From Promethearchaeota archaeon (lineage in GTDB: Archaea; Asgardarchaeota; Lokiarchaeia; Sigyniarchaeales; SOKP01): a stretch of DNA of 10,770 nucleotides. This document shows positions 1,100-9,854 of this stretch, one piece after another. Each line of letters starts with the position of its first letter. Within the stretch, counting starts at the first letter, position 1. The stretch is taken from positions 1-10,770 of the forward strand of contig JAFGGO010000121.1 of assembly GCA_016930515.1 (NCBI GenBank). Reading direction: 5' to 3'. The position numbers were made by a program, and so were the translations under genes. The notes under the pieces are model-generated. The model saw only the letters and a list, made by a program, of their open reading frames with translations. It made no database searches and was not told where the DNA came from.

Positions 1100-1984
1100 A
1101 TGCCATATAAAATTTTAAAGAAAATAGAACTAGGAAATAGCGGCTCGTTGATTGAAATGGATATCAAAGCGCCATTGATTGCCAAAAAAGCCAGGGCAGG
1201 AAATTTTTTATTGTTACGAATAAATGAAACTGGCGAAAGATTTCCCTTAACCGTTGCCGATTACGATAGAGAAGCGGGAACAGTCACAATAGTATTTCAA
1301 GTAGTAGGAAAAAGTACGAAACATTTAGCATCTTTATCCCAAGGAGGCGAGATTTTAGATGTTGTTGGACCTTTAGGAAACGAGATACATGTGAAAAAAT
1401 ACGATAAACCTATCGTTATTATTGGAGGGGGGGTTGGAATTGCACCTTGTTATCCTCAAGCAAAGGAACTCAAGGAGGCGGGAAATAAAATCATCACGAT
1501 AATCGGAGCACGAAACAAGGAATTACTTTTTTGGAGGGAAAAAATGGCCGCTGTTAGCGACGACCTTATAATCTGTACTGACGACGGAAGCGAAGGAAGA
1601 AAAGGCGTCGTCACTGAACCTTTAAAAGAAATCATTCAAAGAGAAGAAATCGAACATGTTATTGCCATAGGTCCATTGATCATGATGAAATTTGTAACAT
1701 TAACAACAAACGGAAAAGGTGATCTTCCATTAGTCAAAACCTTCGTGTCATTGAATACCATCATGGTAGACGGAACAGGAATGTGTGGAGGTTGTAGGTT
1801 TCTTACCACCAATGGAGATATATATTTTGCTTGTGTGGACGGTCCTGATGTCGATGGTCATATAGTTGATTTCGACAATCTTTTAAAGCGCGCTCGCTAT
1901 ATGGTGGACGAAGAAAAAGTATCGCTTGAAAAATACGATCACGAATGCAAAGCTCTTAAGAAATATGCTCAGGAGGGACATTAA
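1100..1984 (+). CDS. nfnA: NfnA/SudB-type small subunit of NADH-dependent reduced ferredoxin:NADP+ oxidoreductase (FNR/PyrK-like; FAD, NAD(H), [2Fe-2S])
   Basis: Motifs ERFPLTVAD, VVGPLG, GGGVGIAP, TDDGSEG, AIGPLIMMK, SLNTIMVDGTGMCGGCR (Asp/Cys [2Fe-2S] ligands) and FACVDGPDVDGH. Lies directly upstream of an NfnB-domain gene. Confidence 0.93.
   Translation: MPYKILKKIELGNSGSLIEMDIKAPLIAKKARAGNFLLLRINETGERFPLTVADYDREAGTVTIVFQVVGKSTKHLASLSQGGEILDVVGPLGNEIHVKKYDKPIVIIGGGVGIAPCYPQAKELKEAGNKIITIIGARNKELLFWREKMAAVSDDLIICTDDGSEGRKGVVTEPLKEIIQREEIEHVIAIGPLIMMKFVTLTTNGKGDLPLVKTFVSLNTIMVDGTGMCGGCRFLTTNGDIYFACVDGPDVDGHIVDFDNLLKRARYMVDEEKVSLEKYDHECKALKKYAQEGH
1971..1976 (+). promoter_or_regulatory. Shine-Dalgarno sequence for the fusion gene
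   Basis: AGGAGG 9 nt upstream of ATG 1986, which lies 1 nt after the nfnA stop codon (ends 1984). Confidence 0.7.
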
Positions 1985-1985
1985 A

Positions 1986-4700
1986 ATGACATCCGTGTTG
2001 GTAAATATTTTAGAATATAATAAAGATAAAATTATTAAAAATGGAAAATATACAGAAGAGACCTTTCAAACCTTCATTGAATCTTTAAAGGTTGCTGAAG
2101 AAAAACGAGAACAAATAAGGAACAAAATACTGGAAATAGGAAAATTCGACGAAGAAAGATTAGCGAACGAAACTGGTTTTTCTTCCCAAGAACTTTTGCT
2201 TAATGTGGAATACTTATCTGAATTGGGTGTTTTAGAAAAAGCAAACATAAAACCAAATGTATTCAAAAAGCAAGGTAAGTTATCCAAGGTTGAAGGTACT
2301 TTTCCGACGATTGCAATGGTTCGGGACGCAAATCTTTGTTGTGCTTGTGGTTTATGCGTTTCTACTTGCCCTTTAAGTGCGATAAAATATAATGGAGATA
2401 CCCTCGAACTTGACGAAGATATCTGCGTAAATTGTGGTTTGTGTTATGCGTGTTGTCCTCGGACTTTCTTTCCTAAAACACTCAAAACTCACGAGGGATT
2501 TCCAGAAAGAGGCTCAAAATATCTTCCAGCTTTAAACTCGTTTAGTAGTGTTTATACGGCGCGAACTACCGAAGAATCGCTAAAAGATCAAATTCAAGAC
2601 GGGGGAATCGTGACAACATTGCTACTTACCGCTTTTAAAGAAAAGTTGATAAACGCAGCTTTAACCGTGGAAAGTTCGGATAAACCACTTGAACCACGTC
2701 CCGTTATAATCGAAAGCGAAAACGACCTTATAAAGACCTCGGGTACGAAATATGCCAACGCTCATTCTCTGAGCGTTCTAAATTCGATTCAGAAATATGA
2801 TCGAATTGCCGTCGTCGGTACACCCTGCATGATGGAAGCGCTTGAAAAATCTACATATTATCCCCTTGGTAAGTCAACCTATGACAATATTGTTTACAAG
2901 ATAGGATTGTTTTGCATGGAATCGTTTGATTATGAAAGCATTGTTGATCTCGTAAAGAAGGAGTTCAAGAAGAATCCCGAAGACGTGAAAAAAATGGACA
3001 TTAATAAGGGGCGCATGTTTGTAATAAGCAAGAATAACGAGGTTTCAGACATCCCCTTGAAACAAGCACACGCATATCCTCGCTTGGGCTGCTTTTTTTG
3101 CGACGATCTAACCGCAGAACAAGCCGATATTTCGGTGGGTTCCATCGGGTCCGATCCTGGGTGGTCAACCGTTATCGTAAGAACACAGAAGGGTGCAGAT
3201 CTTTTTAAAAAAGCCTTGGAACTTCATCTCGTAGAAAAAAAAGAACTTGATGAGGAAAATAAGAATTTCAAGGCTTTAAGTAGAATTGCCGGATTTAAGC
3301 TTAAGAATTATAAAGAAATCGAGAGAATCAAGATGAAGGAACAACCACCCGAAGAACGAGTAAAAAATTTCGAGGAGGTTCCTTTTGGATACACTTCAGA
3401 GATGGCAATAAAAGAAGCCGAGCGTTGCTTGCAATGCAATAACCCTCAATGTGTTAAAAGTTGTCCGGTCAACATAGACATCCCTGCATTTATCAAACAA
3501 ATCAAGGCAGGAAAATTCCAAGAAGCGATTGCCACCATTAAGGATTATAATGTACTTCCCGCAGTGTGCGGCAGGGTATGCCCTCAAGAAGTACAATGCG
3601 AAGGAGCTTGCTTGTTAGGCGAATGTTACGAACCAGTTGCCATCGGAAACTTAGAAAGGTTTGTCGCTGATTGGGAGCGACAAAGTGCCGTTCGTTCTTG
3701 TCCCGAATGTAAAGTCCCAAATGGTAGGAAAGTAGCGGTCATAGGTTCTGGTCCTGCCGGTTTGACGGTTGCTGCGGATATGGCTCGACAAGGATACGAA
3801 GTAACCGTTTTCGAAGCGTTCCACAAGGGAGGTGGTGTGCTCGTTTATGGAATTCCAGAATTCCGATTACCAAAAGCGATCGTAGCAGAAGAAATAAATA
3901 CGCTCAAGGATATGGGAGTGAAGTTTGTATACAACGCCATTATAGGAAAAATTTTAACCATAGAAGACTTGCAAGAGATGGGATTTGAAGCTTTTTTCGT
4001 GGCTGTAGGAGCAGGATTACCGATAATGATGAAAATGCCTGGTCTCGAATTAAATGGTGTGTTGAGTGCTAATGAATTCCTCACGCGAACCAACCTCATG
4101 AAAGCATATAAGTTTCCAGAATACGATACACCTATTAAAATCGGAAAGAATGTTGCAGTGGTTGGGGGAGGAAATGTGGCAATGGATTCAGCGCGGGTTG
4201 CGTTACGACTTGGTGCGGAGAAAGTGTATCTCATCTATCGAAGGAGCGAAGCTGAGATGCCCGCAAGAAAAGAAGAATATCACCACGGCAAGGAAGAAGG
4301 CATAAAGTTCACATTTTTAACAAACCCCGTTAGAATAATCGGAGATGATAACGGAAATGTGTCCAAATTGGAAGTGATCAAGCAGGAATTGGGTGAGCCC
4401 GACGATTCTGGCCGCAGGAGTCCAAAACCAATACATGGATCAGAATATCAAATCGATGTGGATCTTGTAATTTTAGCTATTGGTACTCGCGCCAATCCCA
4501 TACTCACGAGTTCTTATCCTAAGTTGGAAATTAACAAGTGGGGATATATTTCGACGGACGATCTTGGGAAAACCAACCTCGATTACATGTACGCAGGAGG
4601 TGACATCGTCACTGGTGCCGCCACGGTCATTTCTGCTATGGGCGCTGGAAGAAAAGCTGCCAAGGGCTTATTGATGTATTTTAACAACCACGAGGAATAA
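1986..4700 (+). CDS. nfnB: Fusion protein (904 aa): wHTH-like region + 2x[4Fe-4S] ferredoxin + FrhB/FpoF-like F420-binding domain + NfnB/SudA (GltD-like) large subunit
   Basis: Ferredoxin motifs CCACGLCVSTCP and CVNCGLCYACCP (about 2337-2460). FrhB motifs QDGGIVT, SGTKY, VVGTPC, IGLFCMESF and GCFFCDDLTAEQADISVGSIGS..GWSTVIVRT (about 2550-3310). NfnB motifs from about 3324: EAERCLQC..PQCVKSCPV, CGRVCPQEVQCEGAC, IGSGPAGL, YGIPEFRLPK, GGGNVAMD, YRRS and AGGDIVTGAATVISAMGAG. Start moved from TTG 1926 to ATG 1986 because of the SD and to remove the overlap with nfnA. Confidence 0.92.
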   Translation: MTSVLVNILEYNKDKIIKNGKYTEETFQTFIESLKVAEEKREQIRNKILEIGKFDEERLANETGFSSQELLLNVEYLSELGVLEKANIKPNVFKKQGKLSKVEGTFPTIAMVRDANLCCACGLCVSTCPLSAIKYNGDTLELDEDICVNCGLCYACCPRTFFPKTLKTHEGFPERGSKYLPALNSFSSVYTARTTEESLKDQIQDGGIVTTLLLTAFKEKLINAALTVESSDKPLEPRPVIIESENDLIKTSGTKYANAHSLSVLNSIQKYDRIAVVGTPCMMEALEKSTYYPLGKSTYDNIVYKIGLFCMESFDYESIVDLVKKEFKKNPEDVKKMDINKGRMFVISKNNEVSDIPLKQAHAYPRLGCFFCDDLTAEQADISVGSIGSDPGWSTVIVRTQKGADLFKKALELHLVEKKELDEENKNFKALSRIAGFKLKNYKEIERIKMKEQPPEERVKNFEEVPFGYTSEMAIKEAERCLQCNNPQCVKSCPVNIDIPAFIKQIKAGKFQEAIATIKDYNVLPAVCGRVCPQEVQCEGACLLGECYEPVAIGNLERFVADWERQSAVRSCPECKVPNGRKVAVIGSGPAGLTVAADMARQGYEVTVFEAFHKGGGVLVYGIPEFRLPKAIVAEEINTLKDMGVKFVYNAIIGKILTIEDLQEMGFEAFFVAVGAGLPIMMKMPGLELNGVLSANEFLTRTNLMKAYKFPEYDTPIKIGKNVAVVGGGNVAMDSARVALRLGAEKVYLIYRRSEAEMPARKEEYHHGKEEGIKFTFLTNPVRIIGDDNGNVSKLEVIKQELGEPDDSGRRSPKPIHGSEYQIDVDLVILAIGTRANPILTSSYPKLEINKWGYISTDDLGKTNLDYMYAGGDIVTGAATVISAMGAGRKAAKGLLMYFNNHEE

Positions 4701-4866: not shown

Positions 4867-6072
4867 ATGAAAGAATTTATTGAAAACGCAAAAAAACATT
4901 TTGAAAACATAATTATCGAGCAATTAGCCAGAATAGAGCAACTTAACTCCCAGAAAGATTGGATGGATTTTTCTACTATCAGTCCTATTGTCATCGGAAT
5001 CGTGGGAGGTGACGGCATTGGCCCTGAAATATCAAAACACGCTAAATCAGTCTTGGAATTTCTTTTAAAGGAACAAATAAAGAACAATAAGGTACAATTT
5101 AAAACAATCGAGGGTTTAACGATAGAAAACCGTGCAAGAGTCTTAAAAGCTATTCCCGATGATGTTCTAGAAGAACTTAAGGATTGTCATGTAATCTTGA
5201 AAGGTCCAACAACAACCCCTAGAAAGGGAGATAAATGGCCTAATATCGAAAGTGCTAATGTATCAATGCGCAGGGAACTTGATCTTTTCGCTAATGTCCG
5301 ACCTGTAAAAGTTCCTGAATTGGACATAGATTGGATGTTTTTTCGAGAAAATACTGAAGGAGCTTATGTGTTAGGTTCCAAGGGGATAAATGTTACGGAC
5401 GATCTAGCTGTTGATTTCAAGGTTATCACGACCCAAGGATCGGAACGTATCATTCGACTAGCGTTCGAGTATGCAAAAAATAATAACATCAATAAGCTAA
5501 CAGTTGTAACAAAAGCAAATGTCGTAAAAACTACGGACGGTAAATTTCTAAGTATTGCCGAAAGAGTTGCAAAAGATTATCCCGAAGTGGAATGGGACGA
5601 TTGGTATATTGACATAATGACGGCAAAGTTGATCGATCCAGCTCGAAGGAGCCAATTCAAAGTCTTAGTGGCTCCTAACCTCTACGGAGACATCATTACC
5701 GATGAGGCAGCTCAAATTCAAGGTGGTGTAGGAACTGCAGGATCAGCTAACATAGGAAAACGATACGCCATGTTCGAAGCAATACATGGTTCAGCACCTC
5801 GAATGGTAGAAGAAGGCAGAATTCAATTCGCAGACCCGTCTAGCATGATCAAGGCAGCTTCACTCTTGTTAAATCACATAGGATATGTAAATTTATCGAG
5901 AAAATTAGATATGGCACTCGACATTTGTGTAGTCTACGAAAAAGATTTTAAAATGACCGGAAGGTCTAACGGCGCTACAGGAGAGCAATTTACGCAATAT
6001 CTCCTAGAAACTCTTCACGACGATAACTTAGAAAAGAAATGGTCTACATTTCAAGCACAAACAAAGAAGTGA
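4867..6072 (+). CDS. icd: Isocitrate/isopropylmalate dehydrogenase family protein, probably isocitrate dehydrogenase
   Basis: GDGIGPEI, LKGPTTTP, ESANVSMRRELDLFANVRP, RENTEG, KANVVK, PNLYGDIITD and FEAIHGSAP. The S-x-N pair matches the isocitrate-binding Ser113/Asn115 of E. coli IDH rather than LeuB. Family assignment is strong, substrate less so. Confidence 0.8.
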   Translation: MKEFIENAKKHFENIIIEQLARIEQLNSQKDWMDFSTISPIVIGIVGGDGIGPEISKHAKSVLEFLLKEQIKNNKVQFKTIEGLTIENRARVLKAIPDDVLEELKDCHVILKGPTTTPRKGDKWPNIESANVSMRRELDLFANVRPVKVPELDIDWMFFRENTEGAYVLGSKGINVTDDLAVDFKVITTQGSERIIRLAFEYAKNNNINKLTVVTKANVVKTTDGKFLSIAERVAKDYPEVEWDDWYIDIMTAKLIDPARRSQFKVLVAPNLYGDIITDEAAQIQGGVGTAGSANIGKRYAMFEAIHGSAPRMVEEGRIQFADPSSMIKAASLLLNHIGYVNLSRKLDMALDICVVYEKDFKMTGRSNGATGEQFTQYLLETLHDDNLEKKWSTFQAQTKK

Positions 6073-6756: not shown

Positions 6757-8124
6757 TTAGACTAAACCAAATGTAAATGTAAGGAAATTTAATACGAGCA
6801 AGTATAATATGGATGCTCCTATATGAATTGCCGCAAAAGAAGCACCAACTTTAGTCAATCGCTTGATATTTAAATTTTCAACCCCATTATCTTCGGCGAT
6901 TTTTAGCGTCATCATATCGCATGCCGCCCCTTGAGGAAGGAAGTTTCCTCCGAGATTAATTCCAATTATGAAAGCGAAGAAAAGAGGGACGGCAGGGATG
7001 CCTTGTCCGATAAGCGTCTGGACGATGGGGATGAATATAAGCGCTGTGGGCGTGTTCGCAACGAAACCTGACATGGCGCTAACGATTAAAAGAATTATTA
7101 AAGACATTACAAAAGATGTTATCATTGCCGAAAAAGGATCTTGAGATGCTATATCGATGCCACCAAATATCAGGGTAAAAATGTCCCGAAATCCTGCGAC
7201 TAATAAACAATGAATAACGACATATAACGATATGAAAAAGAAGATGATTTCCCATTCAATATCTTTAAGCATTGCACTTAATTTGCTTTTGGTATATTTT
7301 GCATTAATAAGAACCATTACAAGAGCACTTATTGCTGCTACAAGAAACAACCATGGCAATACAGCAAATAATATGATTGTTATGATTATAGCAATGCTGT
7401 TGAAATAGAATAAGGTTCGATTTTTTACTACAACATCCGTATCAATTAATTCGAGGACAAACTTTTTCTGTTGATCTTCAATTTTTGGTTCCTTTCTTAA
7501 AATAAATCTCTCTATGAGAAATATAGTTAAGAAGAGGAGAGAAAAAGAAAAAATCCAAAAATATTTGATAAAATACTCCGTATTCAAGAAGAATTGAGTG
7601 GAAATGATAATATTTTCTCCACTGGAAAAAGGAGTAATGATGCTACCAATGTTGATACAAATGGTCATGCCTAATAGGTATGTTCCTGATCGTATTTTTA
7701 GAAAATGGCACAATCTTATAACCACGGGAGCAAGTATTAATACTACAACCACATCGCTTATGATCGAAGCGAGAAGTGTTGTAATAACACATAATAAGTA
7801 AAAAAAAGTTCGTGGATTCCCTTTTGATATTTTAAAAAGCTTGACTGCCAAAAATTCCAAGATGTTGGAGTCTTGGGCTACTTTGGTAATGATGCTCATG
7901 CTGAATATGATTATTATTGCTTGCCATTCTATTGCCTCTGCTATGAATTCTTCGAAGGTTGTTCCGTATATGAACCCCGTAATAGCGGCAGCAACGAAAC
8001 AACACAATAAGGATATTGCAACGAAATCTAATTTTTGAATCGAATAACTCGCTATTATGAGCGCGAAAAACACAAACATCGTGATGAGAATTGGTAAATT
8101 GGAGATTAAGTTTTCGACCGACAT
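6757..8124 (-). CDS. ArsB/NhaD/SLC13 (ion transporter superfamily) permease, P-protein/OCA2-like
   Basis: 455 aa with more than 10 hydrophobic segments and an internal two-fold repeat: IEWQAIIIIFSM vs IEWEIIFFFISL, ASIISDVVVVLILAPV vs SGFVANTPTALIFIPI, NIGSIITPFSSGENI vs NLGGNFLPQGAACDM. Substrate cannot be determined. Confidence 0.85.
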   Translation of the reverse strand: MSVENLISNLPILITMFVFFALIIASYSIQKLDFVAISLLCCFVAAAITGFIYGTTFEEFIAEAIEWQAIIIIFSMSIITKVAQDSNILEFLAVKLFKISKGNPRTFFYLLCVITTLLASIISDVVVVLILAPVVIRLCHFLKIRSGTYLLGMTICINIGSIITPFSSGENIIISTQFFLNTEYFIKYFWIFSFSLLFLTIFLIERFILRKEPKIEDQQKKFVLELIDTDVVVKNRTLFYFNSIAIIITIILFAVLPWLFLVAAISALVMVLINAKYTKSKLSAMLKDIEWEIIFFFISLYVVIHCLLVAGFRDIFTLIFGGIDIASQDPFSAMITSFVMSLIILLIVSAMSGFVANTPTALIFIPIVQTLIGQGIPAVPLFFAFIIGINLGGNFLPQGAACDMMTLKIAEDNGVENLNIKRLTKVGASFAAIHIGASILYLLVLNFLTFTFGLV

Positions 8125-8376: not shown

Positions 8377-9219
8377 TTATAATAAAAATAGCTTGAGTAA
8401 AAGTATGTCCAATTCGAGCTCTTTTATCAAGGAGAAATTATTAAGAATGTAATCAAAGATTTTTTCTTTGATGTAGTAATTCACGCGAGATGTGTCATCC
8501 ACGTGTTCTTTAATTAATTCCGTAACTCTTTTAACTAAATTGACGATTTGTTTCTCAACGACGACCATGTCGCAATTCATTGGATTAATGTTGATAATAT
8601 TAATACCGCTATTTCTATTAAAGCTTATTTTCTTTAATTCCTCGTTAGATTGAACATAATCATTGTTTGCGTAATTTTTAAACATGTGTTCGATTTTTGA
8701 ATAAATCATGTCTTTTTTAACGAGAGTGAGATGCCCCTCGATTACATTTTGTAATAAGTTTAATATTTGTTGGAAAATACCTAGGAGATCAAAGAATTCT
8801 GCTACATCCATTACGACTTCTGCTTGTTTCCATTGTGTATAATACTCGTCAATTACTTGTTTGAATGGTTCGAAAATATCCGTATTACCAATCCAACTTT
8901 TAGCCCAATACTCTTCGTCTCTGACATATTCTTCTAAGAACGCGTGTTTAATGACATTCAATCTTGACCTGATGAGTTCTGAACCAACGGCCTTGTCGTC
9001 TGCCGCAATAAACAGAAGATTTGAAGTTTTATCTGAAAGATAGACCCACCTCAAGCCACCCATTTCTATGGATTCGATACCTTGCTTGAATTCTACTTCA
9101 GTAAATTGATTTAATGCCGTAAGGAGTCCCGATACGAGATCTTCATTAACAGAAAATTCTTTATAAGGCTTATATAATAACGTAACTCCTGAATTGCTAT
9201 CCATTATCCAAATGTTCAT
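8377..9219 (-). CDS. N-terminal longin-like domain protein with unknown helical C-terminal domain (280 aa)
   Basis: MNIWIMDSNSGVTLLY...EDLVSGLLTALNQF...IESIEMGGLRWVY...LLFIAADD...LNVIKHAFLEEY...NTDIFEPFKQVID follows the longin pattern typical of Asgard proteins. Recognised by eye. Confidence 0.75.
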   Translation of the reverse strand: MNIWIMDSNSGVTLLYKPYKEFSVNEDLVSGLLTALNQFTEVEFKQGIESIEMGGLRWVYLSDKTSNLLFIAADDKAVGSELIRSRLNVIKHAFLEEYVRDEEYWAKSWIGNTDIFEPFKQVIDEYYTQWKQAEVVMDVAEFFDLLGIFQQILNLLQNVIEGHLTLVKKDMIYSKIEHMFKNYANNDYVQSNEELKKISFNRNSGINIININPMNCDMVVVEKQIVNLVKRVTELIKEHVDDTSRVNYYIKEKIFDYILNNFSLIKELELDILLLKLFLL

Positions 9220-9356: not shown

Positions 9357-9854
9357 TCATAATAACTGTTTAAGATCGCTTGTCTTGCAATAATTTTCTA
9401 AATTCCTTAATAACGCCGTTAATTTATTTCTTAACACTAATTCAGCAGCATTTTTCCCCAATAAATTCATAAAGTCGTTAGTTACCTTTAAATTATCGAT
9501 ATAGACGCCAATTTTTGTTTTTGTAGGGGATAACGCCTTTATTCTGAGACGCCCTTCTAAAGCTTGAACATCCTTGTTATTCCGAACATTTAATTCTATC
9601 AATCTCCCCTTGTTTTGTTCCTCGCCCTTGTCGTTCATAACTAATTCACCGGTTAACTCCACAGGAATATTTACAACATCAACTTGATCGACTATATTAC
9701 TCCGAAAAACATTGGGAGATATAAATTCTATATCGATCTTCTTTACAGGAGCGCATTTTTCCCAGATCCCTGGCTTGAAAAGGGCTTTGAGAAAAACATC
9801 CTTGCTGCAATTTTCTATTTCCACAACTTTTGATATAATGTTATTTTTTGACAT
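9357..9854 (-). CDS. Hypothetical protein, probable SRPBCC/START (Bet v1/CoxG-like) fold
   Basis: 165 aa. N-terminal strand then SKDVFLKALFKPGIWEKCAPVKKI (resembles the CoxG-like 'vw..l.dp..l..c.P' pattern), several alternating beta-strands, and a long C-terminal helix (ELVLRNKLTALLRNLENY). Confidence 0.6.
   Translation of the reverse strand: MSKNNIISKVVEIENCSKDVFLKALFKPGIWEKCAPVKKIDIEFISPNVFRSNIVDQVDVVNIPVELTGELVMNDKGEEQNKGRLIELNVRNNKDVQALEGRLRIKALSPTKTKIGVYIDNLKVTNDFMNLLGKNAAELVLRNKLTALLRNLENYCKTSDLKQLL

Follow-up and report, generated by a model that had tools for sequence, protein, structure and literature searches.

A putative F420-coupled Nfn in Lokiarchaeia, encoded by nfnA and a ferredoxin-FrhB-NfnB fusion gene

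Gene organization of the locus

The window analyzed here is a 10,770-nucleotide stretch of DNA (contig JAFGGO010000121.1, assembly GCA_016930515.1) from a Promethearchaeota archaeon of the Lokiarchaeia, whose genome (4.0 Mb) is 94% complete. It carries nfnA followed by one long gene in which a ferredoxin domain and an FrhB-type module, the kind of protein that handles coenzyme F420, are joined to a complete NfnB. In NfnAB, electrons from NADPH are split between NAD+ (through the [2Fe-2S] cluster and flavin adenine dinucleotide, FAD, of NfnA) and a low-potential arm. The features of the locus are listed below; residue numbers refer to the encoded proteins.

1100..1984, + strand: nfnA (NfnS), 294 aa, open; FAD, [2Fe-2S] (D224, C229, C232, C245) and NAD(H) site; high-potential arm
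1986..4700, + strand: fusion open reading frame (ORF), 904 aa; winged helix-turn-helix (wHTH), ferredoxin, FrhB, NfnB
1986..2261, + strand: helix and wHTH, aa 1-92
2301..2480, + strand: 2x[4Fe-4S] ferredoxin domain, aa 106-165; C118/121/124/128 and C147/150/153/157
2532..3305, + strand: FrhB-type FAD/[4Fe-4S] F420 module, aa 183-440; QDGG 204-207, GTKY 253-256, C281/310/369/372
2919..3071, + strand: lid subdomain lining the F420 access channel, aa 312-362; deleted in two branches
3297..3344, + strand: FrhB-NfnB junction, K438 to Q453, 16 residues
3324..4700, + strand: complete NfnB (NfnL), aa 447-904; two [4Fe-4S] (seven Cys and E557), bifurcating FAD with R627, NADP(H) site YRRS 751-754
4867..6072, + strand: isocitrate/isopropylmalate dehydrogenase family gene, co-oriented; context only, candidate NAD(P)H source

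One nucleotide separates the nfnA stop from the ATG at 1986, and the fusion ORF contains no stop. This ATG matches the starts of homologs, and an upstream TTG at 1926 was ruled out as the start because homologs begin at the ATG. Pfam places a Fer4 dicluster at residues 118-159, FrhB_FdhB_N at 189-265, FrhB_FdhB_C at 272-423, Fer4_20 at 458-567, and Pyr_redox_2 at 582-888. An initial reading of this DNA from sequence alone had described nfnA and, one nucleotide on, a single uninterrupted ferredoxin-FrhB-NfnB ORF, and the ORF and Pfam analyses bear this out; its domain list was correct for these three parts but missed the N-terminal winged-helix domain of about 90 residues. Eight ferredoxin cysteines, four FrhB cysteines (281, 310, 369, and 372), seven NfnB cysteines, E557, R627, and R752/R753 are invariant in 87 full-length homologs. 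All four FrhB cluster cysteines are thus kept, as had been claimed, and the predicted content of three FAD, one [2Fe-2S], and five [4Fe-4S] clusters (2+1+2) is consistent with this pattern.

The Nfn subunits

The NfnB half is 58% identical to Thermotoga maritima NfnB, 52% to that of Pyrococcus furiosus, and 34% to GltD, and it scores 593 bits to NfnB (4YLF_B) vs 292 bits to GltD (6S6S_G). With this difference in identity, and with nfnA rather than gltB as the adjacent gene, it falls outside GltD. NfnA scores 281 bits to P. furiosus NfnI-S (5JCA_S) vs 155 bits to Xfn (5VJ7_B), and it retains D224/C229/C232/C245 and GGGVG in 12 of 12 fused loci. By gene adjacency and similarity, this NfnAB is assigned to the NfnI type, closer to NfnI than to the non-bifurcating Xfn/NfnII.

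The residues associated with bifurcation are intact, as the sequence-only reading held. The cluster cysteines C481-C542, E557, and R627 are invariant, matching two [4Fe-4S] clusters and the arginine of a bifurcating FAD. The NADP(H)-type site (Y751, R752, R753, and R761, including the YRR motif) is also invariant and aligns with 4YLF_B. The glutamate of CPQE (E535) had been proposed as the cluster ligand, but the non-cysteine ligand position is instead E557 in LERF, aligned with T. maritima E117 and P. furiosus E126, which we take to be the cluster ligands in the NfnB structures. Cluster ligation by three cysteines and a glutamate has been confirmed (PMC12018979). Database names for the fusion protein are glutamate synthase small chain and sulfide dehydrogenase alpha, so the misannotation that had been foreseen does occur.

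The F420 module

FrhB-type proteins carry FAD and a [4Fe-4S] cluster, and in CODH-zeta, FwdI, and Fsr the chemistry of the ferredoxin-FrhB module runs from one-electron clusters through FAD to F420. The closest solved relatives of the N-terminal half are FrhB (6QGR, E 6e-53), FwdI (8RJA, 1.6e-50), CODH-zeta (8RIU, 2e-49), and Fsr (1e-43); plant HCAR is a much weaker match (E 2.4e-7). Structure comparison of the model gives Z 40.9 for CODH-zeta, 36.8 for FwdI, and 29.5 for HCAR. The module scores 263 bits against the FrhB family (cut-off 269) and 137.8 bits against the FpoF family (cut-off 475), which places it outside FpoF/FqoF. The FpoF/FqoF-type architecture of ferredoxin plus FrhB was correctly recognized in the sequence-only reading; by score the module lies nearer FrhB than FpoF.

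QDGG is the FAD pyrophosphate motif, and residues 128-188 of FrhB form the domain lining the F420 channel (PMC3930138). QDGG and the lid are retained in about 95 of 98 complete copies. The basic cleft residues K336, K341, R343, K359, and R366 are conserved, an observation on residue identity and not on cleft geometry. Ferredoxin-FrhB modules couple CO and formyl oxidation to F420 reduction, and there is precedent for F420 replacing ferredoxin as electron acceptor via such a module (PMC11493965). The added module resembles an F420 reductase. Conservation is lowest in the N-terminal domain (score 0.58) and ranges from 0.74 to 0.84 in the other parts.

Distribution and F420 context

The fusion architecture is common to about 105 protein clusters (90% identity) from NCBI, JGI, ENA, and Logan; past these, scores fall sharply to unfused FrhB proteins, and no distant fusion with the same domain order was seen in the homolog search. 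Named homologs are from Promethearchaeota/Lokiarchaeota. In all 106 fused proteins compared, the junction from K438 to Q453 is 16 residues long, and nfnA lies immediately 5' of the fusion at every locus with enough flank, in agreement with the linkage that had been expected. Within 41 related genomes, the fusion is carried by 11 of 25 in the window's family and by 0 of 16 in three other families, and it is the sole NfnB in 10 of the 11 carriers. In a phylum-wide sample it was found in 17 of 151 genomes, all in the window's Lokiarchaeia family, so the domain-architecture search that had been proposed resolves to one family. Such counts describe distribution among related genomes, which are not independent, and imply no statistical test. 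Lokiarchaeum GC14_75 carries the fusion as KKK42183.1, named sulfide dehydrogenase alpha. Two genomes (G110 and G169) have two fusion copies each.

The window genome has cofG, cofH, cofD, cofE, and Mtd over cut-off, and cofC lies just under it (95.5 vs 105 bits); the F420 biosynthesis genes looked for at the suggestion of the sequence-only reading are thus present. F420-dependent Mtd occurs in 11 of 11 carriers, cofG in nine, and cofD plus cofE in the other two. In a second family (f2), cofG, Mtd, and the fusion are absent in 11 of 11 genomes searched, and NfnB is unfused only. Neither Mer nor FrhA was found over cut-off in the window genome at its 94% completeness; with no FrhA over cut-off, the fusion enzyme may be a main source of F420H2 there, for which an Fno-like gene scoring below cut-off is another candidate.

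Origin of the fusion

Fused FrhB modules form one clade (Shimodaira-Hasegawa-like approximate likelihood ratio test, SH-aLRT, 98), sister to wHTH-ferredoxin-FrhB proteins of about 500 aa that are encoded in hdrA operons; the NfnB and module trees are quick trees without bootstrap. On these trees the module has a single origin and appears to have been recruited from hdrA-linked FrhB proteins. Fused and unfused nfnAB share flanking genes and the same locus, which indicates an insertion of the module between the nfnA and nfnB genes. Three fused/unfused changes are required on the NfnB tree, and the window lineage is the deepest branch in the module tree. One relative (G013) is a mosaic with a fused-type NfnB Fe-S domain and an unfused-type FAD domain. 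Several independent fusions, as a literal reading of the three changes would have it, are less likely because the fused module is monophyletic and G013 is mosaic; one fusion followed by recombination fits the data.

A homolog of the N-terminal domain forms the C-terminal tail of extended MvhD (hhalign 94.8%, E 5e-8), and another forms the N-terminus of the hdrA-linked FrhB proteins; one relative retains a degenerate MvhD ahead of the wHTH domain. Because of this tail homology and this relative, the wHTH domain is most simply regarded as a carried-over structural tail. Single-sequence folding of aa 1-470 gave a poor model outside aa 1-90, and an ESM Atlas search with the N-terminus gave only HTH leads, all sub-0.9. 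Matches to Lrp/AsnC folds (Z up to 6.9) are generic, and a role as a DNA-binding regulator is therefore not claimed. Database proteins of 626-635 aa with FrhB_C plus NfnB were considered as a split form; on inspection, two of them proved to belong to open ORFs of 914-924 aa whose starts had been mis-called.

Lid-less natural variants

Three protein clusters, P0096 (seven members; G012, L157:7451-10039), P0098 (five members), and P0097, have residues 312-362, the 51-residue lid, cleanly deleted. Their FAD motifs are eroded, and all 19 cysteines (12 in the module), E557, and R627 are kept. P0096 and P0098 are on separate well-supported branches of the NfnB tree, so the lid was lost on at least two branches. 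The joint decay of lid and FAD motifs with the clusters kept suggests that both serve one function, flavin/F420 chemistry, which would be under selection in the intact majority. Because the enzyme is viable without the F420 site, another acceptor should reach the wire in these forms, most likely ferredoxin. The sequence-only reading had left a choice between an exclusive hard wire to F420 and a four-pool hub, and the lid-less variants favor the hub over the closed wire.

Proposed reaction

The locus is best read as a canonical NfnAB with a tethered ferredoxin-FrhB module, in which F420 is coupled through the wired module as low-potential partner; we give this a probability of roughly 0.58. The most likely net reaction is predicted to be 2 NADPH + NAD+ + F420 <-> 2 NADP+ + NADH + F420H2. 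NADPH would transfer hydride to the NfnB FAD, from which one electron would pass through the [2Fe-2S] cluster and FAD of NfnA to NAD+, the established route in NfnAB. The other would travel by way of both NfnB clusters into the fused 2x[4Fe-4S] domain, continue to the cluster and FAD of FrhB, and reach F420 as hydride, with the hop from NfnB to the ferredoxin domain presumably made inside one chain or across a dimer. Free ferredoxin probably still exchanges electrons with this wire, making a four-carrier hub and not a closed circuit. A stricter form, with three obligate hydride carriers (NADPH, NAD+, and F420), an internal five-cluster wire, and no need for free ferredoxin, is given slightly less than even odds.

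The AlphaFold2 predicted template modeling score (pTM) is 0.80 over 904 aa. As, by our reasoning, the pTM of independent halves would be capped near 0.5, this value and the fixed 16-residue junction suggest rigid packing that would allow the hop. In structure comparison, several FrhB-type chains have their C-terminal ends aligned with model residues ~549-558, no more than a hint that the Fe-S domain of NfnB lies against the C-terminus of FrhB. A predicted complex between the NfnB and ferredoxin-FrhB halves scored 0.00, which gives no verdict and weighs neither way.

Textbook cell values are -380 mV for NADPH and -280 mV for NADH. The potential of F420 is -340 to -380 mV (PMC8498797). By computation, the forward reaction releases ~15-27 kJ/mol and could drive the low-potential arm to -480 mV, whereas in reverse the reaction would keep NADPH no more reduced than about -330 mV. 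From the forward yield and this weak reverse, NADPH oxidation is the likelier running direction. The isocitrate dehydrogenase-family gene at 4867-6072 is kept adjoining the fusion within the window's genus, a glutamate dehydrogenase adjoins unfused copies and the lid-less G012 copy, and an Mpt_N-type NAD(P) methylene-tetrahydromethanopterin dehydrogenase adjoins other fused copies. These neighbors, as candidate NADPH sources, fit the NADPH-oxidizing direction; NADPH from them would be converted to NADH and to F420H2 for Mtd and HdrA-FrhB complexes. The window's isocitrate dehydrogenase-family protein (4867-6072, + strand) is below all NCBIfam cut-offs and has an HGSAPR motif with arginine where NAD-specific enzymes have aspartate, hinting at NADP preference.

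Several observations weigh against wired F420 coupling. Nine genomes of the family that make F420 still have unfused NfnAB. A gene resembling Fno, scoring below cut-off, could provide a simpler link between NADPH and F420. F420 is just 20-60 mV below NADP, and at textbook pool ratios ~15-27 kJ per turnover would be wasted. In G012, the lid-less fusion with eroded FAD motifs is the sole Nfn, which makes the F420 outlet dispensable in some lineages.

Alternative explanations

Soluble FpoF has been reported as a ferredoxin:F420 oxidoreductase, and the module could likewise be tethered to NfnB without being wired to it: NfnAB would reduce free ferredoxin, and the module would act as a separate ferredoxin:F420 oxidoreductase, with the same net chemistry but a need for diffusing ferredoxin. 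This is the strongest competitor, with about one chance in five. Lid-less variants that stay the sole Nfn show that NfnB can discharge without an F420 site, and the NfnB Fe-S domain has few, mostly conservative, differences from unfused NfnB. The C-terminal fused domain of Fsr is also reached via the partner subunit and not within the chain (PMC10229431). Wiring is favored instead by the invariant junction length with a pTM that suggests rigid packing, by retention of all 12 module cysteines in the lid-less variants, which fits a retained wire, and by the G013 recombinant, which kept the NfnB Fe-S domain together with the FrhB module and took its FAD domain from the unfused lineage.

FrhB-fold enzymes do not all react with F420, as HCAR and some others use ferredoxin instead, and the FrhB FAD here might serve a non-F420 partner, or the MvhD-derived tail and ferredoxin domain might plug Nfn into an HdrA-type complex. 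The extended MvhD tail at the N-terminus and the sister proteins encoded in hdrA operons agree with a docking or wiring adaptor of this kind. Fused loci, though, have no conserved hdr neighborhood, the N-terminal domain shows the lowest conservation and is without the MvhD [2Fe-2S] domain, and the lid and basic cleft match F420-using enzymes. We regard an adaptor as unlikely.

Less likely still is a non-bifurcating enzyme, either an NADPH:F420 oxidoreductase or a GltD/SudA-type NADPH input subunit. The database names point this way, and in DPD and NfnABC GltD-like modules supply tethered ferredoxin domains with no bifurcation involved (PMC12018979). The intact nfnA adjoining the fusion, the higher identity to NfnB than to GltD, the invariant glutamate ligand and arginine, and an NfnA that is NfnI-like rather than Xfn-like argue to the contrary. 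An assembly chimera or one-off fusion is untenable given more than 100 clusters with conserved architecture from separate databases, carriers among genomes across the phylum sample, and an open, near-identical copy (L165), even though the fusion of the nearest relative (G003 C297, L092) has one in-frame TAA at codon 378, an assembly error or recent inactivation.

Neighboring genes and related loci

Other genes in the window are the following.

385-708, + strand: 107-aa coiled-coil-like protein
6757-8124, - strand: ArsB/CitMHS-type permease
8377-9219, - strand: 280-aa protein, longin-like-looking N-terminus (by eye)
9357-9854, - strand: 165-aa coiled-coil-like protein

In relatives with unfused nfnAB, the three genes at 6757-8124, 8377-9219, and 9357-9854 likewise lie beside it, as markers of the ancestral locus.

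A second, wider Asgard family of 823 aa (L084:1434-3905, - strand; G000 C94:24133-26604) is encoded in an hdrCBA-mvhD-mvhG-like operon and has 250 matches at E <= 1e-30, named Loki, Thor, Hod, and Heimdall. These proteins carry an inserted GltD-like NAD(P)H module at the F420-lid position of ferredoxin-FrhB and a C-terminal wHTH, and lysine, not glutamate, occupies the cluster-ligand position. It looks like a family in which F420 input was exchanged for NAD(P)H input, a mirror image of the Nfn fusion. Operons at L085:1413-2909 (- strand) and L160-L164 have hdrA in pieces, then a ferredoxin-FrhB gene or a pair of them, then an HdrD-like gene and another hdrA; they may encode F420-linked Hdr complexes and are a candidate source of the fused module. 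In L089 (G000 C111:92555-100108), hdrA-mvhD and Flx/Asr-like genes precede a ferredoxin-FrhB gene, possibly another F420-linked bifurcating complex. A fusion of HdrC-like, GltD-like, and CCG domains of about 904-917 aa is present in L086:660-3374 (+ strand) and L002:1886-4639, in the latter immediately 5' of nfnA.

Significance and comparison with known systems

To our knowledge, known bifurcating enzymes deliver their low-potential electrons to ferredoxin, flavodoxin, or a CO2-reducing enzyme bound to them, and F420H2 serves solely as a split donor. Wired F420 coupling, if true, would be a new reaction for the Nfn family and would call for revised redox models of a large family of Lokiarchaeia, to which Lokiarchaeum GC14_75 belongs. 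In the stricter form without free ferredoxin, a strongly reduced F420 pool could be obtained from fermentative NADPH without an F420-reducing hydrogenase. The system has two genes and optically readable substrates, same-family unfused NfnAB and the lid-less variants are natural controls, and an NADPH-driven F420H2 regenerator has possible use in biocatalysis.

Both halves of the fusion are already known, and recruitment of FrhB modules is recurrent; the new element would be F420 ending the low-potential arm. The lid-less variants are new here, and the MvhD-tail assignment was likewise tested in this analysis. No description of this architecture was found in the literature searched, with subscription papers outside its coverage, in line with the earlier statement that no characterized Nfn is known to have it.

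Compared with NfnAB/NfnI (4YLF, 5JCA), the locus has the same nfnA-nfnB order, complete subunits, Glu-ligated cluster, FAD arginine, and Asp/Cys3 [2Fe-2S]. It differs by a 446-aa N-terminal addition, three more [4Fe-4S] clusters, a third FAD, and a low-potential partner that is probably F420, besides or instead of free ferredoxin. CODH zeta (8RIU) and FwdI (8RJA) from Ca. Ethanoperedens thermophilum have the same ferredoxin plus FrhB module and redirect electrons of ferredoxin-level potential to F420 (PMC11493965), but as separate subunits on non-bifurcating C1 enzymes, whereas here module and bifurcating flavoprotein form one covalent chain. Fsr (7NP8, 7NPA) similarly has an N-terminal ferredoxin-FrhB fused to a C-terminal redox domain (PMC10229431), but F420H2 there donates to siroheme and there is no bifurcation. 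HdrA2B2C2 of Methanosarcina acetivorans and Fdh-Hdr bring F420 and flavin-based bifurcation together (PMC8498797); in those systems F420H2 is the mid-potential donor that is split, whereas here F420 would end the low-potential arm. The uncharacterized HdrA-NfnB insertions of ANME-1 also recruit NfnB into a larger redox protein (PMC9012536), but their partner is HdrA, without nfnA and without FrhB in the chain.

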